In this document: positions 26,998 through 47,424 of the stretch, one piece after another
Layout: each line of letters starts with the position of its first letter
Position numbering within the stretch: position 1 is the stretch's first letter
NCBI GenBank assembly: GCA_038851325.1
Contig: JAWCKZ010000002.1
Coordinates: 44,935-108,934, forward strand
Reading direction: 5' to 3'
DNA length: 64,000 bases
From: Candidatus Bilamarchaeaceae archaeon
GTDB taxonomy: Archaea; Micrarchaeota; Micrarchaeia; Anstonellales; Bilamarchaeaceae
The notes under the pieces: model-generated
The model's input: only the letters and a program-made list of their open reading frames with translations
What the model was told of the DNA's origin: nothing
The model's database searches: none
Position numbers and translations under genes: made by a program

Positions 26998-28353
26998 GTG
27001 AAGAGTATGAAATATTTCAAAACATTTATGGTGGATGCTGCAAAGCAGAAGAGTAAAGGCCCTACTGCTAACCATAAACTAAACAAATTGTATGTTCAGC
27101 ACGAAGGGTTGCTTACCACTCAAAACAACGTACAACCATCGCCAAGGGGGCGTAATGTAACCGTACATGGTCCACTAAAAATTGCTTTGGAGGAGTTTGC
27201 GCCAGACGCCGAAAGCTACGACTCTCTACGATGTATAACCAGGTTCGCAAGCGAGGACTTTAGTAGTCTTTCGGAGTACCTATTTACAGTGCTCAAAAAA
27301 GCCTTTGAAGGCGTGGTGAGATGCTCCATCTATCTTGCCGAAGAGGTAGGAACCAGGAGCAGTTTCAAAACAATCCTCTCGCATTATCTGACTATTAACA
27401 TGAATGGAAATGTAAGAACAAGTTCGTTGGACAAGGGAAGCAGAATATCAGATAAGAGCGATCCTATTTTGAAGGCTTATCTGGATAAAAAACCCAGGTT
27501 TATAGATTATCGCGCGGGCATGGACCTGATTTTCAAGAATCTTAATTATGAAAACAAAGACTGTGATGTGTACGTAAGAGAACCTAACATCCTTAAAGAT
27601 GATGTTGCGTTGATACCATTTTATTACAGGGAAAGGGATAAACTTCGCGGTGTGATGGTACTGGAAGGAAACCTCAAGTGTAAAAATTCGGCAAAATGTG
27701 GTTTTGGGAAAGCATTCTATTTTATGATGGCAGCTACAGCACTCGGCGCCCAAGTTGGTTTTATATCAATGCAAAAATACGATCACACAACCGCGCTGTA
27801 TAAAAAAAGCGATTTTGAGATAGACCTAAAAACATTAATTCGCAGATTGTTAAAAGCACAAAAGCGTGGTGCGCAAAAGAACGCTATTATCCTTCTCGTA
27901 GACCTTGATAATTTTAAGGCGGTCAATGAGCATTATGGATATTTAGCTGGGGACGCTCTTCTTAGTAATATAGCAAAAGCGATAAAGAACTCCGTGCGCA
28001 GGCCCACACAAAACAGAAAATCAGACATTATAGCCAGATGGGGCGGGGAGGAGTTCGCTATTCTTCTTGAGGATATAGATGAAGAAAATGCAATCAAAAT
28101 AGCCAACCGAATCAGGGACGAGGTGGCCAAGGCAAAGATAAAAGTTGACGAAAAAGAGATAAGAGTAACATGCAGCATAGGCCTTCTTAATATCGAGAAA
28201 GCTTTGGCGACAGATAAGAGAACAGGTGTGGATGAAGCAGCAAAAAATGTTTTTAATAAATGCAACACCCTTCTCAAATCTGTTAAAAGCAACGGAAAGA
28301 ATGGAATAGCGTTTGTTTCAGAGGGCAATGGTGTGGAGCTGATACGCGGATAG
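26998..28353 (+). CDS. GAF-like + GGDEF domain protein (diguanylate cyclase-like)
   Basis: YDHTTALY, LLVDLDNFKAVNEHYGYLAGDALL, RKSDIIARWGGEEF, VTCSIG, VKSNGKN. Confidence 0.92.
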   Translation: MKSMKYFKTFMVDAAKQKSKGPTANHKLNKLYVQHEGLLTTQNNVQPSPRGRNVTVHGPLKIALEEFAPDAESYDSLRCITRFASEDFSSLSEYLFTVLKKAFEGVVRCSIYLAEEVGTRSSFKTILSHYLTINMNGNVRTSSLDKGSRISDKSDPILKAYLDKKPRFIDYRAGMDLIFKNLNYENKDCDVYVREPNILKDDVALIPFYYRERDKLRGVMVLEGNLKCKNSAKCGFGKAFYFMMAATALGAQVGFISMQKYDHTTALYKKSDFEIDLKTLIRRLLKAQKRGAQKNAIILLVDLDNFKAVNEHYGYLAGDALLSNIAKAIKNSVRRPTQNRKSDIIARWGGEEFAILLEDIDEENAIKIANRIRDEVAKAKIKVDEKEIRVTCSIGLLNIEKALATDKRTGVDEAAKNVFNKCNTLLKSVKSNGKNGIAFVSEGNGVELIRG

Positions 28354-34890: not shown

Positions 34891-35193
34891 CTACAATCTT
34901 TTTTCAAATCCACATTTACGGCATTTTATTCTTAAACAATTATGCATCCTGTCGAACTTAACCGTAGCAGTTTCGCCAGGTATCCATGGTGTTAAGCATT
35001 TTCTACAGAACGCGTTTCTGTACTCCTTTGGCAAGCGCGTCTTATTTTTTTTCAACAGTTCCCAAGCCATTCTTATATAACGCGCCGCTCTTTCGATCTT
35101 CCCCGTTAGATACGCATCATGCGACTCGTCTATTAGATTTATAACTGATTGCGAAGCTACTCTTTTTATAAGCCTTTTCCGTTTAAACTTCAT
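34891..35193 (-). CDS. rnp4: RNase P protein component 4 (Rpp21/Rpr2)
   Basis: RAARYI, RLPKEYRNAFCRKCLTPWIPG, CRKCG zinc ribbon. Confidence 0.9.
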   Translation of the reverse strand: MKFKRKRLIKRVASQSVINLIDESHDAYLTGKIERAARYIRMAWELLKKNKTRLPKEYRNAFCRKCLTPWIPGETATVKFDRMHNCLRIKCRKCGFEKRL

Positions 35194-35205: not shown

Positions 35206-36045
35206 ATGAAAAAATTTATATACGATTACTTTATCGATCCCATATGGTCAAGGACAGGATACAATCTCGTTAATACTTCTGTTTATGTGGTAATGGCACT
35301 CGCTGCGGTCTACGCCATCTTTAAACTTTTCAAAAAAATTGATATAACCATTGACAGGCGCTTCATGTTCGCCCTCCTGCCCTTTATCCTTTTTGGCTCG
35401 ACCGTTAGGGTGATAACAGATTCTATAGACAGTGATGTTTTCAAACCGATAACTCCAGTGCATGCTTTCGTGCTTCAGAGTCACATCTACGATTATGGCT
35501 ATCTTACAGTAACTCCGGGTATATACATCGTGACTGCCCTGATCTTTCTCTTATCTGTGTTGTTGCTCCGTTTTTTGGGCAGGATGGAGGATCTTTGGAA
35601 AGTTGGTGCAGCGCTGTGGCTGCCTCACCTTCTGCTTCTGCTGCCATTTATGGGTTATTGGTACCTTGCCTTCGTACCAATAGTCCTCGCAATCGTTCCG
35701 TGGGCTGTTGCAAAGAAAATTCTGAAAGATGATATTCTAGCCGGTATTGTGTTCGCGCATGCGCTTGATGGCTCCGCAACATTTTTTGCGTTGAGCGGCA
35801 TATTCGAAAAACTTACGGGTATACGCTATTTTGAGCAGCATGTTGTCTCGAGTGCGCTAATAAACATCACGGGTGACCCGATTGCATTTTATTTCTTGAA
35901 AATTCTGCTCTCATTTGCTGCAGCGTATGCTCTAGCGCATGAAAAAATGCCAGAGGATGAGAAGGTTTATATTTCCGTTGTTTTAATAACGGTGGGGCTT
36001 GCACCAGGGATAAGAGACACTGCGCGGATAATGGTGGGTGCGTAA
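35206..36045 (+). CDS. DUF63 family membrane protein
   Basis: GYNLVNT, PFILFGSTVRV, TPGIY, AHALDGSATF, EQHVVS, VGLAPGIRD. Confidence 0.85.
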   Translation: MKKFIYDYFIDPIWSRTGYNLVNTSVYVVMALAAVYAIFKLFKKIDITIDRRFMFALLPFILFGSTVRVITDSIDSDVFKPITPVHAFVLQSHIYDYGYLTVTPGIYIVTALIFLLSVLLLRFLGRMEDLWKVGAALWLPHLLLLLPFMGYWYLAFVPIVLAIVPWAVAKKILKDDILAGIVFAHALDGSATFFALSGIFEKLTGIRYFEQHVVSSALINITGDPIAFYFLKILLSFAAAYALAHEKMPEDEKVYISVVLITVGLAPGIRDTARIMVGA

Positions 36046-36525
36046 ATGGATGAACATTCTCTTGAGATTGGGTTAGGGTTTGGGGTTACGTCTGCAGTGA
36101 TAACAACGGTTGGACTTATTGTGGGATTAGATTCAAGTACACATTCGCAGGCAACTGTACTCGGCGGTATCATTGTAATCGCAATAGCAGATGCGCTCTC
36201 AGATGCTCTTGGTATTCACACATCAGAGGAATTCGAAGGTGTCCATACCACTAGGGAAATATGGGAGTCAACAGTTATGACATTCATAGCTAAATTCATA
36301 TTTGCCCTAACCTTTGCGATACCAATCATACTTCTTCCACTTTCTCAAGCGGTAGTGGTTGATGTGGTATGGGGACTGCTTTTACTTGTACTTCTGGGCC
36401 ACCTCATAGCAAAAAAGGAAAAGGAAAGTCGTATAAAAGTTATCGGCGAACATCTTGTAGTTGCAATAGTTGTTATTGCGGCAGCGCGTTACCTAGGCAG
36501 TTGGGTGTCAGTAACTTTTGGGTGA
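36046..36525 (+). CDS. VIT1/CCC1-like membrane protein
   Basis: GFGVTSAVITTVGLIVG, IAIADALSDALGIHTSEE. Confidence 0.7.
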   Translation: MDEHSLEIGLGFGVTSAVITTVGLIVGLDSSTHSQATVLGGIIVIAIADALSDALGIHTSEEFEGVHTTREIWESTVMTFIAKFIFALTFAIPIILLPLSQAVVVDVVWGLLLLVLLGHLIAKKEKESRIKVIGEHLVVAIVVIAAARYLGSWVSVTFG

Positions 36526-36567
36526 CGATACAGAAAAGTTTTTTAAATTTCTTTTACTTATACACTT

Positions 36568-37455
36568 ATGCTAGATGCACCTCCCAAAAGCGAGAGACAA
36601 CTTATTTTGGAGGCAGCAGTGGAGGTCATCAAAAAACAAGGACTTAGATCGGAATTGATAGGGAGCAAGAAATTTTCAGAATACTTTTTTAAGGGTGTTA
36701 TGCTATTCAATGTTCTTGGTGACGGATGCACAAGAAACTGCAGGTTCTGCGTTATAAAGTACAAAAAAAAGCCTGATAAGCCTTCGCTTGATGAAGGAAA
36801 AAGAATAGCCGCTGTTTCTCAAAAACTTGGATTAAGGTATATTGTTCTTTCGCCCGTAGCAAGGGACGACCTTGCAGATGGCGGTGCATCCTACCTTGCA
36901 TCCTACATAAGAGATATAAAAAAGATAAATCCGAATGTGAAGGTTGAGACGTTTATTCCAGATTACGGTAAAAAACACCTTATAAAAATGGTGGTCGACG
37001 CTGGGCCAGACGTAATATCATACAGTCTAGACACGATCAAGCGGCTATATTCTGTCGTGAAGGGAAGCGAGTTTGATTTTGAGAGGAGCATAAGGACAGT
37101 CCGCACGATTAGAGAGTTGAGCAAGGACATACCCATCAGGGCAACCATAATGGTTGGGTTTAGAGAAAGTTGGTTTGAGGTAATAGGCGCATTAAGACGA
37201 TTGCGTAAGGCGGGCGTGGATATGATAACGATAAGCCAATACTATAGGCCAACAAAGAACCATATTCAGGTTCTTGAGTATGTACCGGTGGAAAGGTTCG
37301 AGTTGTATGAAAGAGAGGCATATCAACTTGGTTATAAACATGTTAAGATTCAATCTGGCAAGCCTATTGAGTATAGCGATTATATCCTACCAGAATTTAT
37401 TTCTTCTGTACAACGAAAGCCTCTAGGACCTTTTCGTAAGGAGCATCAGTTTTAA
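36568..37455 (+). CDS. Lipoyl synthase (LipA)-like radical SAM protein lacking auxiliary cluster motifs
   Basis: LGDGCTRNCRFC, VARDDLADGGA, VETFIPDY, ITISQYYRP; no CX4CX5C and no RSSY. Confidence 0.85.
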   Translation: MLDAPPKSERQLILEAAVEVIKKQGLRSELIGSKKFSEYFFKGVMLFNVLGDGCTRNCRFCVIKYKKKPDKPSLDEGKRIAAVSQKLGLRYIVLSPVARDDLADGGASYLASYIRDIKKINPNVKVETFIPDYGKKHLIKMVVDAGPDVISYSLDTIKRLYSVVKGSEFDFERSIRTVRTIRELSKDIPIRATIMVGFRESWFEVIGALRRLRKAGVDMITISQYYRPTKNHIQVLEYVPVERFELYEREAYQLGYKHVKIQSGKPIEYSDYILPEFISSVQRKPLGPFRKEHQF

Positions 37456-38485
37456 CAGCAGTTGGAGAAAAATGGGTTCTTGCGGCTTTGTAGCCAATCG
37501 AATTTAAGAAATCAAGAACATCGTTCATCTTCGGCACGCTTCCTCGCGAAATAAACTTTGAGATTCTATGAAGATCATAAAAATATGGTGGCATCCCAAT
37601 CTCTTGTTCCATAAGCTCTAATTTATTATGTATCTCTTCTCTGTGACCGTACCCTCTCTTTTCATTTAATTTTTTCATTTCTCTGAGAATATTTATATCG
37701 TGGAGCTCTCCGAGCCAAAGCGGTCCTGCGTACTCAATATTTTTATTGCAGACCTTGCACCACTCCGTTGGAAAGCGCACTGCTCTCCTGAAGCCACAAT
37801 GTGGGCAGTACTCGACATAACCAAGACGTGCAAGCGCGTTGTTTGCTTTCTCTGCCCCCCTTGTTACCTTTACTACAGTTTTTAAATAATGTCTATCAGA
37901 GATCGAAAGAAGAGGTATCGTTCCCATGTTAAATTCGGCACCTACTTCGGCTATCTTTTTTATCAAAATCCTGAGACCGTTTTCGTGCGTGCATTCATTG
38001 TTCAGCGGCTTTGCATGATAGTTTTTCATACACGGCTTTGTTTTTCCGCCGCACAGAACAGCAGTGTCTGTTGCTGTGACTGAAAGATATCCCTGCTTAA
38101 GGGGATTAAAGATTCTGAAAACATCATAGAGATACGGAGATGGTGTCCCAAACGGGTCAACCTCGACAAAATCAGCGGTTATGTCGAAAACAAGTCTTGA
38201 GATGTTCCCATGGAGTACAGAGAATTTTATTTTGTTTTTCCTTGCATTTTTTCTTGCACATGCCACGGCCGCTTTATTCACATCAACAAATATAGTGCGC
38301 CTTACATTATCATTTTCGATGGCATATCGTATGCCCCGTATGCCAGTTGCTGCAAATCCGTCGCACACAATGATTTTTTCCGCCAATGCACCGATCAAAA
38401 GCGAAACAATGCTGCGACAGAACGTCATTTCTTTATTGTAAAAAACCCCCTTCGGTGCGTTAAACACCACTCCCTCCTCCATCAT
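37397..38485 (-). CDS. trm1: tRNA (guanine26-N2)-dimethyltransferase
   Basis: VFYNKEM, DGFAATGIRGIRY, VDPFGTPSPY, TATDTAVLCG, YAGPLWLG, RTHFSP. Confidence 0.95.
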   Translation of the reverse strand: MMEEGVVFNAPKGVFYNKEMTFCRSIVSLLIGALAEKIIVCDGFAATGIRGIRYAIENDNVRRTIFVDVNKAAVACARKNARKNKIKFSVLHGNISRLVFDITADFVEVDPFGTPSPYLYDVFRIFNPLKQGYLSVTATDTAVLCGGKTKPCMKNYHAKPLNNECTHENGLRILIKKIAEVGAEFNMGTIPLLSISDRHYLKTVVKVTRGAEKANNALARLGYVEYCPHCGFRRAVRFPTEWCKVCNKNIEYAGPLWLGELHDINILREMKKLNEKRGYGHREEIHNKLELMEQEIGMPPYFYDLHRISKFISRGSVPKMNDVLDFLNSIGYKAARTHFSPTAVKTDAPYEKVLEAFVVQKK

Positions 38486-39707
38486 TTTTATCCCTATCCA
38501 AAAATTCTCTAAGAGCCGCGGTTGCATAGGCCCCTGATTGGAGCGAGAATGTGAATGTGTTGTTATAAAATGAGAAGTCTTTTAATGGTGAGAGCAGCGT
38601 ACGGTGTGTTCCTTTTGAGGATATCTCTGGTATGGCCTTTATTTTGAAATCACGCGGTTTTATATCAAACATCTCAAGAATTCTTTTTTCACGCTCGTTC
38701 ACCTTTGTTTCATACCCTATCATCTTTCCTGCAATCCATCTTGAATGACTTTCCTGCTTCTTTATGTCAGGAAAGCCACCCGTCTCTCCGCAATAGTATT
38801 CTCCTTCTTCGAGTTTGTTGAGCGCTCCTTCAGCAATTCTTTCTGATAGGGCAAGGTTGAAGATGTGCGACTGGAATGCGTGAACGAACAAAAGAAGGAT
38901 GCGTCTCGGTAGTTTTCTAAGAGCACCAGCATAGTCCCTTGGATAGACAGCAAGATGTGTAAGAAGCGCTCTCTCAAGGTGCAAATACTTTGGAAACTCC
39001 TTAAGTGCTTTCTTAAAGTCCCCTGTTTCTCGTAGATTTTTTCTTGCTAATATTGCTAGTTCGTTTGTTTCCCCTTTGCATTCACAGAGAAATTCAAGTG
39101 CCGCCAAATCGTGCCTCCCCTTTGCAAGGTACTCTCCGAGTTTGTGAGTATTTCGCCTGCTTGAACCAAACCTTTGAGGCCCAAAATAGTTAGGGAAGAC
39201 GCCATTCAATTCTTTATAAATCACTTCCACAGCGTTTTTTTCGTTAGGATTCTGTCCATGTACAACTATCTTGAAACGGTTTCCCAGAAGACTGCCCAAT
39301 CTCGTTTTATCAGATGAGCTCCACGCGCCGAGTATCTTTATATCCTTGAGATTAAGCGAGAGCAATTTCTCCTTGCTAATTCCGAAAACAGAAACAAGTT
39401 GAGTAGAAATAGCATTCTTATCCTTCGTACCTGCATAACTGAATCGCTTTGCACTGATGCGAAGTTCATCCGCTATTCTCCTTATTGCCCCCTCGCTTGT
39501 CCATTCCCTCTTTTGAAGTATGAAATGCGTGAAATTTCCTTCTGTCCCAGCGCGTGTGAAGGTCTTGTCCTTCTCCAGTATTGTTCCGTCTTCAAGTATT
39601 TCCTCAACTATGAAATCATCCGGTGTTTTCTTTATTCTTCCACCAATTCCAGGGGTCTTTGAAAGGTAAGAAAGAAAATGGTCTTTCTCTGGCAAATCCT
39701 CACTCAT
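38460..39707 (-). CDS. truD: tRNA pseudouridine13 synthase
   Basis: DDFIVEEI, SYAGTKDKNAISTQ, LLGNRF, PNYFGPQRFG, GAYAT. Confidence 0.96.
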   Translation of the reverse strand: MSEDLPEKDHFLSYLSKTPGIGGRIKKTPDDFIVEEILEDGTILEKDKTFTRAGTEGNFTHFILQKREWTSEGAIRRIADELRISAKRFSYAGTKDKNAISTQLVSVFGISKEKLLSLNLKDIKILGAWSSSDKTRLGSLLGNRFKIVVHGQNPNEKNAVEVIYKELNGVFPNYFGPQRFGSSRRNTHKLGEYLAKGRHDLAALEFLCECKGETNELAILARKNLRETGDFKKALKEFPKYLHLERALLTHLAVYPRDYAGALRKLPRRILLLFVHAFQSHIFNLALSERIAEGALNKLEEGEYYCGETGGFPDIKKQESHSRWIAGKMIGYETKVNEREKRILEMFDIKPRDFKIKAIPEISSKGTHRTLLSPLKDFSFYNNTFTFSLQSGAYATAALREFLDRDKNDGGGSGV

Positions 39708-39825: not shown

Positions 39826-41226
39826 CTATGACCCCATTTTTTCTGTCTTTGTTTTTCTGTCTTTGTTGCGGACCATGTGGATGATCGATTTATAAGACTG
39901 GAAGAGTGAATTAACAAGGGTTTGATTTCCGCCCAGATAGTAATGATGCGCCGCACCCCCCTCCTCAGCTATCTGATGCCACTCCTTTGTTTTCAGCTGC
40001 ACTTCAAATCGCAGCAATCTCGAGGTGAGAACATCCTCGGGTTCGGTGTCGTAATGGAACGCCTTATAACCATTTTCAGGTTTGACTTTGAACTCTGGAG
40101 TGCATTTTTTGTAAAGCACGCCAGGGGTTGTATTTAGTCCGCATAAATTTGATTCTATTACTGCCTTTGCCAATTCCAGAGCTCTCCCCTTTGCGTCTTC
40201 TTCCATCTTGTCTACCTCAATCCCATGTAGTTTGTTGATGATAACGCGGAGCGCTACAAGGTCATTAAGTTTTGCAATGTCGTAGTATTGAATAATCGAT
40301 CTTATATATTTGTTTAGTTTTTCTTCATTTTCCTCAGAACTCTCGTTATGACCAACATGTAGACGCTTAAACTCATCCACCAATCTTCTATATATCTTGC
40401 GCATTATTTTCCCTTCATGTTTTTTCATTCTTGGTGCAACAATCGCATCTGTGAAGCCTTGGACTCTTAACGTTTGCCTGATCCGTCTTGCAAGATCTTT
40501 GACAATGTTTTGCGTTGTATGCAGGCGTTCCGTAAGCCCGGTTTCATTCATTTTTTCCATTACATATTCGTATATCTCTCTGTGGTTTATCTTAAATGCG
40601 TGGAGAAGAATATCTCCTGCTAGGGATGGATATCCAAAAAATTCTGCCAGCGGGGCGTAGATTTTCTCCCCTGCTGTTGCGTCCCTTTTTAGAGAGTTTT
40701 CTGCATCCGATTGAGAATCGTAAAGCCTGAATATAGAACAACCATTGTTGTTAATGACATCATTTGTTCTTTGGCTTGTTGTGTGCGTGACAGCGACATC
40801 AACTATTCGCGGCAGCAAAGCCAATGGAGCTGGTTTGTTATCATTAAGTAAAGGAATATAACTCTCCAGCGGAGCACCAGCGCGATCAAGATTTCTCAAC
40901 TGACAGAATATTCTGAGTTCGTCGACTATTGCTCTTTCTTCTAGCATTTGAAGGATGGAAGGGTCCAAGCATTTAACCTTATCATAATCTATCATGTGAT
41001 AAAGTACAATCTCTGTAATCCGGTGATTCAGTTCAGCCCTTTCTGGATCTTTTTTGTAGTGTTTTATTGCACTTCCATTCACCATCTTTACTTCTTCAGC
41101 CTTTTTCATGACTTCAAGGCAGTGTTGGTAGAGCTGCATAGCATTTTTTTTGAAATAAAAATTCCTAGCTGTTAGTATACTGGATTGAAGGGATGGTAAT
41201 TTTTTTCTAGTTCGTATAAATTCCAT
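39826..41226 (-). CDS. RelA/SpoT homologue: degenerate HD domain + synthetase domain, no C-terminal regulatory domains
   Basis: KIYAPLAEFFG, PRMKKH...RK, NDLVALRVII, KPENGYKAFH, FEVQLKTKEWHQIAEEGGAAHHYY. Confidence 0.85.
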   Translation of the reverse strand: MEFIRTRKKLPSLQSSILTARNFYFKKNAMQLYQHCLEVMKKAEEVKMVNGSAIKHYKKDPERAELNHRITEIVLYHMIDYDKVKCLDPSILQMLEERAIVDELRIFCQLRNLDRAGAPLESYIPLLNDNKPAPLALLPRIVDVAVTHTTSQRTNDVINNNGCSIFRLYDSQSDAENSLKRDATAGEKIYAPLAEFFGYPSLAGDILLHAFKINHREIYEYVMEKMNETGLTERLHTTQNIVKDLARRIRQTLRVQGFTDAIVAPRMKKHEGKIMRKIYRRLVDEFKRLHVGHNESSEENEEKLNKYIRSIIQYYDIAKLNDLVALRVIINKLHGIEVDKMEEDAKGRALELAKAVIESNLCGLNTTPGVLYKKCTPEFKVKPENGYKAFHYDTEPEDVLTSRLLRFEVQLKTKEWHQIAEEGGAAHHYYLGGNQTLVNSLFQSYKSIIHMVRNKDRKTKTEKMGS

Positions 41227-45834: not shown

Positions 45835-47424
45835 ATGAATGACCAAAAAAAGATTGGAGAGAAATTCGTAGTCTTACAGGGCGGTGGTAAGAACAGGAAA
45901 AATTTATTCGATGGAGAGCTACCTGTTGTGGAAACAAGGCCGGATAACGAAGTCAACAAAATGCTCATAAGTGCTGTGCAGAATTTGGATGCAGATATGG
46001 TGGAGAGGGCACTGAAGGCAGGCGCGTATCCAGGGCTTATAGATTCAGATGGAAATACGTTACTTCATTTTTCTGGATATGAAGGTAATTATAAAATTTC
46101 AAAACTGCTTATCGATTACGCTTTGGCTAGAAAGATTGATATCATTAACGTACATAATAAACAGAACAAGACGCCGATGGACATGGTGCTGGATGGTCGA
46201 AGACCTGATTCCGAAGGACATGCTAAGGTCTTCGCACTTCTGAGAATAAATAAAGGAAAGTGGTTTAACCCTGAAATTCTTTCTCACATAGGAAATTTTG
46301 AAGAGACTAAACGAGTAATCGAGCGTATAGGAAGAGCTGCCATGTCGAGCGAATTGATAATGGCTGCTGCAGCGCTTGATATTGATTACGCAAAAAAACT
46401 CCTCAGATGTGGTGCTAGTATTTTTTTTAATGATACGGCGACCACCGAGATCTACACTTCTCCGCTTGCTGTTATCATAGGCAAAGCGCTTGAGAGCGGT
46501 CTTACCGATGAGATAGTAAATGCTGCCAAACTTTTTGTTGACTGGAACGCCAAGCTTAACGCCCCATTTATACCAGATTTAAACAACCCATATTTTAAGG
46601 TTACATTGATTGAGATGCAAGCAGCAGATGGCATTCCGCATGACATACGGGGTCTCCTGAAGGATCTTTATGATAAGCAGCTTGCGAACGAACAGCTTTT
46701 TGTTGCTGCGGATGAGAATGATAGGTATCGGGGCGAAAGTGCGATAAGAAAAGGCGCAAGCGTGGACGCGCGGGACGAATTTTTCGGTACTTCACTTCAC
46801 ACTGCTCTGGCCAAGGCGCATCTTGATTTTGCAGAGTTTATTGTCGAGCTCAATACCGATTTAACAGCTGTAGATAGCATTGGCTCTACCCTAATTCATG
46901 CTGCTGCTTATTCGAAAGATCCTAGTGCGCTCACGCTTATAATAAGCGCTATGAGAAATGCAGGTATCGAGCCTGACCTTGATGCCAAGGACGATTTGGG
47001 GAATGCGCCAATACATGTCGCGGTTTTTAGAAGAGGGTATGAAATGGTAGAGGCGCTGGGAAAGGCAGGTGCTGACTTAAACGTGCGAAGCGATTCTGGT
47101 GAAACACCCCTTCACACTGCAGTCATGATGGATGATCCAGATATGGGCGGTTTGCTTTTGAATCTCGGAGCAGAGATTACAGAGGATGTTATTAAATTTG
47201 CAGAGGAGAGAGGCAGGGATGACATAGCAGATGCGCTAATGAAAATAAGAGAAAAACAGAAAGCAGCAGAGTCTCTTCATACTGCAATTAAAAATGAAGA
47301 GCATGGCGCAACGCTACCTGCAAAGAACGAAGAAAAAACTAAAGATGGGCCAGAGGAGGCAGGTAGAAAACTGCCCAACAACGTTGTGCCATTTCCTAAC
47401 CTCGAGCGCAAAGGCAAATCCTGA
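45835..47424 (+). CDS. Ankyrin-repeat protein
   Basis: GNTLLH, NKTPMD, GTSLHTA, GSTLIHAA, GNAPIHVA, GETPLHTA repeats. Confidence 0.9.
   Translation: MNDQKKIGEKFVVLQGGGKNRKNLFDGELPVVETRPDNEVNKMLISAVQNLDADMVERALKAGAYPGLIDSDGNTLLHFSGYEGNYKISKLLIDYALARKIDIINVHNKQNKTPMDMVLDGRRPDSEGHAKVFALLRINKGKWFNPEILSHIGNFEETKRVIERIGRAAMSSELIMAAAALDIDYAKKLLRCGASIFFNDTATTEIYTSPLAVIIGKALESGLTDEIVNAAKLFVDWNAKLNAPFIPDLNNPYFKVTLIEMQAADGIPHDIRGLLKDLYDKQLANEQLFVAADENDRYRGESAIRKGASVDARDEFFGTSLHTALAKAHLDFAEFIVELNTDLTAVDSIGSTLIHAAAYSKDPSALTLIISAMRNAGIEPDLDAKDDLGNAPIHVAVFRRGYEMVEALGKAGADLNVRSDSGETPLHTAVMMDDPDMGGLLLNLGAEITEDVIKFAEERGRDDIADALMKIREKQKAAESLHTAIKNEEHGATLPAKNEEKTKDGPEEAGRKLPNNVVPFPNLERKGKS

Follow-up and report, generated by a model that had tools for sequence, protein, structure and literature searches.

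The window (the whole stretch of 64,000 nt that was analyzed), from a tiny symbiotic archaeon of the family Bilamarchaeaceae (Micrarchaeota, DPANN), contains a lipA-like gene whose product is probably a LipA descendant put to another use. The gene (36568..37455, + strand; 295 aa; identified by open reading frame, LipA homology, fold, and column comparison) is not decaying and was shown to be under strong purifying selection. Judged by its residues in combination with published mutagenesis, the protein was shown to be unable to insert sulfur and not to be a lipoyl synthase. We favor, with a probability of approximately 45%, an exapted LipA scaffold whose conserved role in the subclade needs neither iron-sulfur cluster, and of which the window copy may still bind one. 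The lineage offers a clear candidate pseudoenzyme of radical-SAM origin; no description of such a pseudoenzyme derived from LipA was found in the searchable literature.

The open reading frame matched exactly the position and strand given in the earlier note, and all motifs quoted there were found: LGDGCTRNCRFC (residues 50-61), RDDLADGGA (99-107), ETFIPDY (127-133), ITISQYYRP (220-228), RSELIGSKKFSEYF (27-40), and PIEYSDY (266-272). The claimed similarity to LipA was far above chance (human LIAS, E = 1.8e-42, phmmer against PDB; M. tuberculosis LipA, E = 6.6e-38). The protein scored 210 bits on the NCBIfam lipoyl synthase subfamily NF004019 (cutoff 203) and 56.7 bits on Pfam Radical_SAM PF04055 (gathering score 29.5). 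On the TIGR00510 equivalog it scored 204.4 bits, which is below the cutoff of 310.25; P0300, a canonical Micrarchaeota LipA, scored 353 bits. Membership in LipS1 or LipS2 (27.2 and 24.5 bits vs. NCBIfam cutoffs of 230 and 270), BioB (24.5 bits vs. 225), and the MiaB/RimO methylthiotransferases (28.6 bits vs. 251) was rejected. An alternative or frameshifted N-terminus with Cys residues was also ruled out: a stop codon bounds the open reading frame, and the gap to the upstream gene is 42 nt. The AlphaFold model of the window protein (pLDDT 91.8) matched M. tuberculosis LipA 5EXI with a TM score of 0.83-0.88 (Foldseek), and a LipA fold was also predicted for the orthologue P0002 (pLDDT 92.9); both models are driven by the LipA alignment and do not thereby prove independent folding of cluster-less proteins.

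The auxiliary [4Fe-4S] cluster of LipA is the sulfur source for lipoate, and its ligands are three cysteines (CX4CX5C) and the serine of the RSSY motif. The protein was aligned with 246 canonical LipAs and compared with them column by column. Where every canonical LipA has an auxiliary Cys (three columns, 100% Cys), the window protein has a gap, Ser33, and Tyr39. Its first Cys is residue 54 and CX4CX5C is absent, which confirmed the reported absence of Cys from this N-terminal region (0/3 auxiliary Cys). The former auxiliary loop, RSELIGSKKFSEYF (residues 27-40; 36646..36687, + strand), has a conserved sequence in the window protein and the relatives that are 60% identical to it. At the other end of the protein, RSSY is replaced by YSDY (37372..37383, + strand; HMMER alignment to human LIAS and column comparison). 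The R, S, and S columns, each 100% conserved in the canonical LipAs, are Y, S, and D, the substrate- and adenine-binding Arg having become Tyr269 and the cluster-ligand Ser having become Asp271. Thus, the replacement by PIEYSDY described in the earlier note removed both the Ser ligand and the Arg. The Arg binds the octanoyl carbonyl and adenine N3, and the Ser is an auxiliary-cluster ligand (PMC12246082, PMC13232139). The Booker laboratory described the Arg as absolutely required; E. coli LipA R306K was essentially inactive, and Ser308 substitutions greatly diminished lipoyl formation (PMC13232139). Because all four auxiliary ligands and the required Arg are gone, the window protein would not insert sulfur, and the proposal that it cannot be a canonical lipoyl synthase stands.

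The radical-SAM motif is retained, as had been read from the sequence: CTRNCRFC (36727..36750, + strand; supported by the PF04055 score) is an intact CX3CX2C, and its C54, C58, and C61 are the only cysteines of the protein. Because this motif supplies the only cysteines, the site probably still holds a [4Fe-4S] cluster, which may be structural or may serve residual SAM binding. In human LIAS, SAM and 5′-dA are contacted by F143, N237, E239, M279, Y309, and R350 (PMC12246082). The window protein keeps F60, M195, and Y225 at these contacts, and has S153 for N, D155 for E, and Y269 for R. Continued radical-SAM activity would account for the retention of CTRNCRFC and of most SAM contacts no less well than a structural cluster would. 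Of the 66 columns conserved in at least 90% of the canonical LipAs, the window protein keeps 59%, compared with 77% in the Cys-bearing relatives.

The window gene is the positional orthologue of the Bilamarchaeaceae LipA gene. The order Rpr2/DUF63/lipA-like/Trm1/TruD was identical in every locus fetched. The synteny anchors in the window are the RNase P subunit Rpr2/Rpp21 (34891..35193, − strand; Pfam Rpr2, 47.3 bits), trm1 (tRNA N2,N2-dimethylguanosine methyltransferase; 37397..38485, − strand; Pfam TRM, 302 bits), and truD (tRNA pseudouridine synthase D; 38460..39707, − strand; Pfam TruD, 365.6 bits). In 13 full-length clusters (P0005-12, P0269-273), the auxiliary CX2CX5C, the radical-SAM triad CTRNC[KR]FC, and x[HY]SY are all kept, whereas the auxiliary ligands are missing from the window protein and from P0001, and the window protein keeps the radical-SAM triad. 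The closest relatives (P0002-4 and P0357; 60% identical to the window protein) likewise lack the auxiliary ligands. Their radical-SAM motif reads HTRNCKVR, which has one Cys left of three and lacks the Phe that stacks on adenine, and their RSSY site reads FKDY or FNDY. The ligand loss, whose conservation the earlier note had proposed to check, is therefore common to the 60%-identical orthologues but not to the distant ones, which keep the Cys residues. In a neighbor-joining tree (numpy, 200 bootstraps), the clade was monophyletic in 199/200 bootstraps and the Cys-less group in 200/200.

Every member of the Bilamarchaeaceae clade lacks the RSSY Arg and has GFRE for GLGE and Ser for the ribose-binding Asn, and all fall under the TIGR00510 equivalog cutoff (189-261 bits vs. 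310). When GTDB genomes were scanned with the clade profile, only five loci were obtained, none from the window's own species. In a second Micrarchaeota lineage (P0121, P0362-365) and in P0128, the auxiliary ligands are absent and CX3CX2C is always kept. Two auxiliary-cluster-less LipA-like lineages other than that of the window protein adjoin 2-oxoacid:ferredoxin oxidoreductase genes; a tblastn search detected no such gene in the window.

Among the doubly cluster-less genes (P0002-4, P0357), NG86 dN/dS was 0.046-0.090 at dS 0.3-1.4. In the same genome pairs, dN/dS was 0.055 for trm1 and 0.048 for truD, and one Cys-bearing pair of lipA-like genes gave 0.108. Within the doubly cluster-less sister group, the former radical-SAM loop had a dN/dS of 0.024 and the former auxiliary region 0.12; the C-terminal tail was relaxed (dN/dS 0.40). 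The rate increased approximately 1.7-fold on the Cys-less branch (P ∼ 0.03), and constraint was then renewed. The open reading frame was intact in every assembly, with zero frameshifts. P0357 was present on 22 contigs, of which the six listed came from six different samples. The window gene differed from that of locus L001 by nine synonymous and four nonsynonymous changes, and its lineage is represented by two nearly identical sequences only, from which selection on its own Cys triad is not measurable. Contigs from hot-spring metagenomes repeated the 13 differences seen in L001/L002 and added no variants. When RNA evidence of expression was sought, the sequence was found only in DNA runs from hot-spring metagenomes. 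The earlier note had named orthologues with conserved Cys, combined with relaxed selection, as the outcome that would speak against it; distant orthologues do keep the Cys residues, but selection is strong (dN/dS 0.05-0.12).

The neighbors are as described previously: a weak VIT1-family membrane protein upstream (36046..36525, + strand; 159 aa; Pfam VIT1, 25.4 bits, below the cutoff of 28.1) and trm1 downstream, which is convergent and whose 3′ end overlaps that of the lipA-like gene by 59 nt. The VIT1-like gene lies between DUF63 and the lipA-like gene only in the Cys-less subclade (present in L001, L003, L004, L007, and L020; absent from L008, L009, L011, and L013). Its candidacy as a functional partner was rejected because linkage to the lipA-like gene is not required: P0357-type loci have two genes on the opposite strand between them. 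The DUF63 (AliA-AliB family) membrane protein gene (35206..36045, + strand; Pfam PF01889, 163.9 bits) is the co-directional upstream neighbor in every orthologous locus. A role in archaeal lipoprotein thioether formation was considered because of this neighbor and rejected, the link being taken as mere synteny; the AliA/AliB paper gives different conserved neighbors and no radical-SAM or LipA link. A BRE/TATA-like element, AGAAAAG TTTTTTAAAT (36531..36549, + strand; sequence and upstream-region alignment), lies approximately 24 nt 5′ of the ATG. Its TTTTAA is invariant across seven aligned upstream regions, and the element is kept in both Cys-bearing and Cys-less loci. The element may be the lipA-like gene's own promoter and give rise to a leaderless mRNA; its conservation suggests independent transcription of the gene, which counts against the DUF63 link.

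No ligase, H protein, or E2 gene was found within 10 kb in any orthologous locus, which agrees with the previously noted lack of lipoate-pathway genes nearby. A crude and weak motif scan for lipoyl/biotinyl attachment sites in all open reading frames of the 64-kb window gave one irrelevant match. The genome of the nearest Cys-bearing relative, JACCLJ01 sp013425425 (which carries P0005), has LipA only, without Lpl, E2, GcvH, or DHDL (Tanabe et al. 2023, S3 table), and two JACCLJ01 genomes have a "LipA" without ligase or target (Tanabe et al. 2023). In the table block that we read as Bilamarchaeaceae, 14 of 25 species have none of these genes; Lpl, E2, and DHDL accompany LipA in 9 of the 11 LipA-positive species and are missing wherever LipA is missing (Tanabe et al. 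2023). LipS genes are absent from Micrarchaeota (Tanabe et al. 2023).

Proteins of the Bilamarchaeaceae clade have a pI of 9.6-10.4 and a net charge of +14 to +33, compared with a median pI of 7.6 and a net charge of +1 in canonical LipAs. The net charge is +16 in the window protein and +20 to +26 in its sisters. Within the window, +16 ranks alongside ribosomal proteins, Rpr2, Trm1, and TruD, unlike metabolic enzymes. The same basicity is seen in the Cys-bearing members, which may be genuine lipoyl synthases.

According to the reading that we favor, the sulfur-donor [4Fe-4S] site has been dismantled in one Bilamarchaeaceae sublineage, and the intact LipA scaffold would serve this subclade in a conserved non-radical role of the binding type, as in an exapted pseudoenzyme. 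The strongly basic surface might be a faint hint of a polyanionic partner, for example RNA or an acidic protein. Because the sisters without a radical-SAM site are equally constrained, radical chemistry is probably not the basis of the function shared by the Cys-less subclade. The "repurposed radical SAM enzyme" of the earlier note consequently lacks support in the form given: same-locus orthologues with 60% identity have lost two of three radical-SAM Cys under equal constraint. Its suggestion of different chemistry probably does not apply to the subclade-shared function, whereas in the window copy alone the intact CTRNCRFC would permit single-cluster radical-SAM activity.

It is rather unlikely that the window protein is an active radical-SAM enzyme with a single cluster and a new substrate, working without sulfur insertion, and that the sister lineage changed function again upon its later loss of the Cys triad. 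Such an enzyme would form a 5′-deoxyadenosyl radical, for example for hydrogen abstraction leading to desaturation or rearrangement. The Radical_SAM score is in its favor, as is the intact CTRNCRFC, which provides the only three cysteines and whose eight residues are the same as in the ancestral form despite divergence at approximately 40% of positions. The adenine and ribose contacts are kept or conservatively changed (F60, M195, Y225, E155D), and P0121, P0362-365, and P0128, without auxiliary ligands, always keep CX3CX2C. However, the closest orthologues lack two of the Cys and the adenine-stacking Phe under the same or stronger loop constraint (dN/dS 0.024), the changes corresponding to Asn237 to Ser and Arg350 to Tyr remove two SAM/5′-dA contacts, and no conserved neighbor gene hints at a substrate. 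We consider it improbable that the whole clade, including its Cys-bearing members, was already outside lipoylation and consists of LipA-derived factors that act on RNA or bind it (one example being a tRNA/rRNA-directed sulfur-insertion enzyme, of which the cluster-less forms would have kept a catalysis-independent RNA-binding or chaperone function). The clade-wide loss of the RSSY Arg, CX2C for CX4C, GFRE for GLGE, Ser for the ribose-binding Asn, the low TIGR00510 scores, and the very basic charge of all members would fit such a factor. The two JACCLJ01 genomes with "LipA" but neither ligase nor target, and the position of the gene among tRNA-processing genes (Rpr2, Trm1, TruD; TsaD in relatives), would fit it as well. 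Against this, the 9 of 11 LipA-positive species with Lpl, E2, and DHDL show the pattern of a working lipoylation module, the clade-wide Arg at GLGE (G199R) could compensate for the RSSY Arg, and informational genes dominate small DPANN genome neighborhoods anyway.

A functionless lipA relic, decaying after the lineage gave up lipoylated enzymes, is very improbable and already largely refuted. The stepwise loss of catalytic residues, the rate increase on the Cys-less branch, the relaxed C-terminal tail, and the many related species without any lipoate genes are what such decay would leave. The intact open reading frame in every assembly is not, nor are a dN/dS of 0.05-0.09 over dS ∼1, equal to that of essential neighboring genes, the highly constrained former cluster loops, the conserved promoter-like element, or the persistence of the gene over 60%-identity divergence and in many samples. 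Least credible was the suggestion that the protein is still a lipoyl synthase that takes its sulfur in trans, from another Fe-S protein or a persulfide. In its favor, the protein keeps the fold of LipA and the radical-SAM site. The octanoyl-carbonyl-binding Arg, however, is gone, E. coli R306K is essentially inactive, Ser308 substitutions strongly impair lipoyl formation (PMC13232139), and the closest orthologues have lost the radical-SAM cluster site. In addition, the ligase, H protein, and E2 missing within 10 kb of every locus are missing also from the genome of the nearest Cys-bearing relative (Tanabe et al. 2023).

A broader proposal, in which RNA or polyanion binding rather than lipoylation is the selected role of a basic LipA-derived Micrarchaeota family (the Bilamarchaeaceae clade and its sister P0121/P0362), is in our view doubtful. 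If it were true, the auxiliary cluster would have been lost at least two times and the radical-SAM cluster once, with constraint kept, giving a natural series that starts with a radical-SAM enzyme of two clusters and ends with a pseudoenzyme free of cofactors, and a parallel to tRNA-modifying enzymes with a catalysis-independent chaperone role. Natural series like that of these orthologues are rare: a sacrificial-cluster radical-SAM enzyme lost its sulfur-donor cluster first and its SAM-cleaving cluster second, under purifying selection as strong as on tRNA-modification genes. The window protein could serve directly as a single-cluster LipA scaffold for asking what the radical-SAM half does in the absence of a sulfur source and which second function a LipA fold can carry. 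A 99%-identical protein is labeled "lipoyl synthase" at NCBI, and the 203-bit NF004019 threshold, which the window protein just clears, was also used in the published lipoate survey (Tanabe et al. 2023). Metabolic reconstructions of DPANN can therefore wrongly credit lipoate synthesis.

Compared with LipA/LIAS of solved structure (EC 2.8.1.8; 5EXI/5EXK, M. tuberculosis; 4U0P, T. elongatus; 8TRW/8TSK, human), the window protein has the same fold over approximately 270 residues (TM 0.83-0.88) at 28-32% identity in structure-based alignments. CX3CX2C, RDDLxDGGA, ExxIPD, QYxxP, and the C-terminal helix are common to both. Unlike LipA/LIAS, the window protein has no CX4CX5C, has YSDY for RSSY, YSLDT for HN(I/L)ET, and GFRE for GLGE, carries a net charge of +16 vs. 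approximately +1, and scores 204 vs. 310 on TIGR00510. The Cys-bearing Bilamarchaeaceae orthologues (P0005-12, P0269-273; 43-52% identity, same position) share with it GFRE, the loss of the RSSY Arg, FE[FL]YEREAYQLG, and a high pI, but keep the CX2CX5C triad and the ligand Ser (0/4 ligands in the window protein); our reading of the survey table places them together with Lpl, E2, and E3 in most species of the family. The doubly cluster-less P0002-4 and P0357 (60% identical; same locus, including the VIT1-like insertion) share the auxiliary-ligand loss, the Ser-to-Asp change, and the conservative replacements E155D, R165K, and K191R. With a single Cys in HTRNCKVR, they are predicted to be unable to bind the SAM-cleaving cluster, whereas the window protein keeps CTRNCRFC. 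LipS1/LipS2, the two-protein archaeal lipoyl synthase, are radical-SAM proteins that yield the same lipoyl end product as LipA; the window protein is unrelated to them at the family level, and each of them has an auxiliary cluster, unlike the window protein. The E. coli LipA variants R306K and S308A/C (PMC13232139, preprint) are altered in a similar way at the Arg and Ser positions. Those variants are laboratory point mutants that have the auxiliary cluster, whereas the window protein is natural, has lost the whole site, and is evolutionarily stable.

The lipA-like ORF (36568-37455, + strand, 295 aa) lies where the earlier note had placed it, and all the motifs quoted there were found in the sequence. 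Radical_SAM was the sole Pfam domain matched. The protein scored 210 bits against NF004019, an NCBIfam lipoyl synthase subfamily (cutoff 203), and 204 bits against the TIGR00510 equivalog, whose cutoff of 310 was not reached; LipS1, LipS2, BioB, and MiaB identities were rejected, with NCBIfam scores all below 30 bits. The closest solved structures were human LIAS (E = 1.8e-42), T. elongatus LipA2, and M. tuberculosis LipA, and the AlphaFold model (pLDDT 91.8) matched the last of these with a TM of 0.83-0.88 over approximately 272 columns. Together, these results clearly mark the protein as a LipA descendant.

Alignment with 246 canonical LipAs, each carrying CX4CX5C, CX3CX2C, and RSSY, bore out the claim that this homologue has no auxiliary-cluster ligand: the three auxiliary Cys columns are occupied by a gap, Ser33, and Tyr39, and the RSSY columns contain Tyr269, Ser270, and Asp271. 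The auxiliary cluster takes its fourth ligand from RSSY, namely the second Ser, and the Arg, which hydrogen bonds to the octanoyl carbonyl and adenine N3, is absolutely required, E. coli LipA R306K being essentially inactive (PMC12246082, PMC13232139). Because the lost residues are defined by published structures and mutagenesis, the window protein cannot be a canonical lipoyl synthase, as had been proposed. Its only cysteines (C54, C58, and C61) all lie in CTRNCRFC, the radical-SAM motif, which is unchanged over eight residues in the window lineage despite approximately 40% overall divergence; this argues that the window copy probably still holds one [4Fe-4S] cluster.

In a collection of 5.8 billion proteins, a set of 18 clusters (90% identity; 17 full-length, 1 fragment) stood well clear of ordinary LipAs in score; for a single query, scores dropped from 255 bits within the clade to 187 bits below it. 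The clade formed two 50% clusters in a library of 1.84 billion representatives, where the next score fell from 489 to 275 bits. All fetched loci showed the same gene order (Rpr2 on the opposite strand, DUF63/AliA-AliB, lipA-like, then convergent Trm1 and TruD), and the lipA-like genes are therefore positional orthologues. Three grades were distinguished. Grade 1 (protein clusters P0005-12 and P0269-273; 43-52% identity to the window protein) has CX2CX5C, CTRNC[KR]FC, and x[H/Y]SY, with the Arg lost and the Ser kept. Grade 2 (the window protein and P0001) has no auxiliary ligands, CTRNCRFC, and YSDY. Grade 3 (P0002-4 and P0357; 60% identity) also has no auxiliary ligands and carries HTRNCKVR and FKDY or FNDY. 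P0001, 99% identical to the window protein and annotated as lipoyl synthase, is encoded in an NCBI MAG under the name Candidatus Bilamarchaeaceae archaeon, on a contig syntenic with the window; the window protein's sequence is also present in hot-spring metagenomes. Bilamarchaeaceae belong to the Micrarchaeota (DPANN), order Anstonellales. Their type MAG measures 1.27 Mb at 40% GC, and a mostly fermentative metabolism has been described for related MAGs of the group (PMC8561730).

A neighbor-joining tree (Kimura distances, 275 columns, 200 bootstraps) supported the whole clade (199/200) and the Cys-less group (200/200), with the Cys-bearing members as sister to the latter in 167/200. On this topology, the sequences place a single loss of the auxiliary ligands in the shared ancestor of the window and P0002 lineages, and the loss of the radical-SAM triad afterwards, in the P0002 lineage only.

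Nei-Gojobori dN/dS was 0.046-0.090 among the four doubly cluster-less genes of grade 3 (dS 0.3-1.4), 0.055 for trm1 and 0.048 for truD in the same genome pairs, 0.108 for one Cys-bearing pair, and 0.12 for the window versus locus L001 (9 synonymous and 4 nonsynonymous changes). Within the P0002 group, it was 0.024 in the former radical-SAM loop (KYHTRNCKVRQKKFH), 0.12 in the former auxiliary region, and 0.40 in the C-terminal tail, the sole relaxed region. P0357 occurred on 22 contigs, and the six listed placements represent six different samples. Conservative replacements (E155D, R165K, K191R, and S271D) were fixed at positions 97-100% invariant in LipA. Unique changes were approximately 1.7-times more frequent on the Cys-less branch than on its Cys-bearing sister (Tajima relative-rate test, P about 0.03), consistent with a period of altered constraint after which conservation resumed. 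A BRE/TATA-like element (AGAAAAG TTTTTTAAAT, 36531-36549, invariant TTTTAA) precedes the ATG by approximately 24 nt and is kept in Cys-bearing and Cys-less members alike (window; upstream regions of L003, L007, L008, L009, L011, and L020), even where two further genes are inserted upstream. This element suggests that lipA-like may have its own promoter and a leaderless transcript, expressed independently of the upstream DUF63 and VIT1-like genes. The low dN/dS, the persistence of P0357, the conservative replacements, the rate pattern, and the conserved element largely rule out a decaying gene. The earlier note had set relaxed selection on this copy, with Cys retained in orthologues, against a repurposed enzyme; grade 1 does keep the Cys, but the selection measured was strongly purifying.

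A short VIT1-like membrane protein gene lies between DUF63 and lipA-like in the Cys-less subclade only (window 36046-36525, L003 540-1025, L020 7615-8100); in P0357-type loci, the space from it to lipA-like contains two more genes, both on the opposite strand, for an HTH_10 regulator and an uncharacterized 357-aa protein. A 55-nt segment of this gene (36178-36232) matches short separate contigs with 8 mismatches in three of four hot-spring runs, and 36197-36232 matches another organism's contig in run X4 (25 kb, 60x depth); these matches probably reflect a conserved VIT1 motif that also occurs in an organism of higher abundance in the community. The 3′-ends of lipA-like (+) and trm1 (-) form a convergent overlap of 59 nt (37397-37455), with similar overlaps (approximately 17-59 nt) in all orthologous loci.

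The window protein cannot donate sulfur, has no Arg to bind the substrate, and evolves under strong purifying selection. Because its nearest orthologues have no radical-SAM cluster and are under undiminished constraint, the subclade most likely represents a pseudoenzyme whose LipA fold has a common role in binding or scaffolding. The main rival reading is that the window copy has single-cluster radical-SAM activity, either residual or new. The proposal of a repurposed radical SAM enzyme is not supported as it stands: it may apply to this copy, which keeps the triad, but it does not extend to the equally constrained orthologues without that cluster. The whole clade is also very basic (pI 9.6-10.4, net +14 to +33); canonical LipAs have a median pI of 7.6 and net +1, and 1% exceed pI 9.5. 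At net +16, the window protein ranks with the ribosomal proteins, Rpr2, Trm1, and TruD of the window, where metabolic enzymes have net -5 to +2. The gained Lys/Arg are scattered along the sequence and include clade-wide G199R in GLGE and D211R/H. This hints at a polyanionic partner, weakly so because Cys-bearing members are equally basic, and Arg199 might simply substitute for the lost RSSY Arg.

As the earlier note had seen, lipoate-pathway genes are not nearby: no ligase, H protein, E2, or E3 gene occurred within 10 kb of lipA-like in any fetched locus. In the supplementary table of Tanabe et al. 2023, we took the rows from Bilamarchaeum to UBA10214, by the order of the table, as the family (f__UBA10214). 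In this block, 9 of 25 species have LipA, Lpl, E2, and DHDL together, 14 lack all four, and the two JACCLJ01 species have LipA only; the PRK05481 threshold of the survey was 203 bits (PMC10332631). Cys-less proteins score 201-210 bits, right at that line. JACCLJ01 sp013425425 is GCA_013425425.1, the assembly with P0005, the Cys-bearing protein nearest the window protein. A working lipoylation module would be ancestral to the family, with targets and ligase lost in some lineages and the lipA orthologue surviving, with clusters kept (JACCLJ01), then without the auxiliary cluster (window), then without both (P0002/P0357). The data fit such an outliving of the module, although MAGs may be incomplete.

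Among approximately 340 LipA homologues inspected, forms without auxiliary ligands were limited to the Cys-less members, the P0121/P0356/P0362-365 lineage, and P0128. The second has no N-terminal Cys triad and has lost RSSY, and in several members the ribose-binding Glu, always keeping CX3CX2C; P0362 and P0365 carry Micrarchaeota names. P0128 has His/Tyr/His at the auxiliary positions, RNPY for RSSY, and CX3CX2C. P0121 was sister to the Bilamarchaeaceae clade in 179/200 bootstraps, possibly through long-branch attraction, and shares the derived motifs ERWxEV, RHLRRA, and FEFYERxAYQLGF with it. Both further lineages adjoin a 2-oxoacid:ferredoxin oxidoreductase gene pair: the lipA-like genes at L026 4661-5479 and L030 10001-10825 lie tail-to-tail with it, and the one at L028 7483-8370 lies 16 nt upstream, co-directional; no such oxidoreductase gene was found in the 64-kb window. 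L028 also has an oxidative-stress gene cluster.

Elsewhere in this otherwise DPANN archaeal genome, a GGDEF diguanylate-cyclase domain protein is encoded at 26998-28353 (+, 451 aa; Pfam 104.6 bits, strong) and recurs in the related MAG contig L001; archaea rarely have c-di-GMP enzymes. An alarmone-synthetase-like protein with a RelA/SpoT nucleotidyltransferase region (39826-41226, -, 466 aa; 33.7 bits) is kept in L001, where the match is weak, as is an ankyrin-repeat gene (45835-47424, +, 529 aa; Ank_2 79.6 bits) of this archaeal symbiont genome.

A full-text literature search, incomplete in coverage, returned no description of LipA homologues without the auxiliary cluster or of a LipA-derived pseudoenzyme. 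That both clusters were lost step by step while selection stayed strong is unusual and open to direct testing. The window protein works like nothing so far characterized: its fold and radical-SAM half are LipA-like, but three defining features of LipA are missing, CX4CX5C and both the Ser and the Arg of RSSY.
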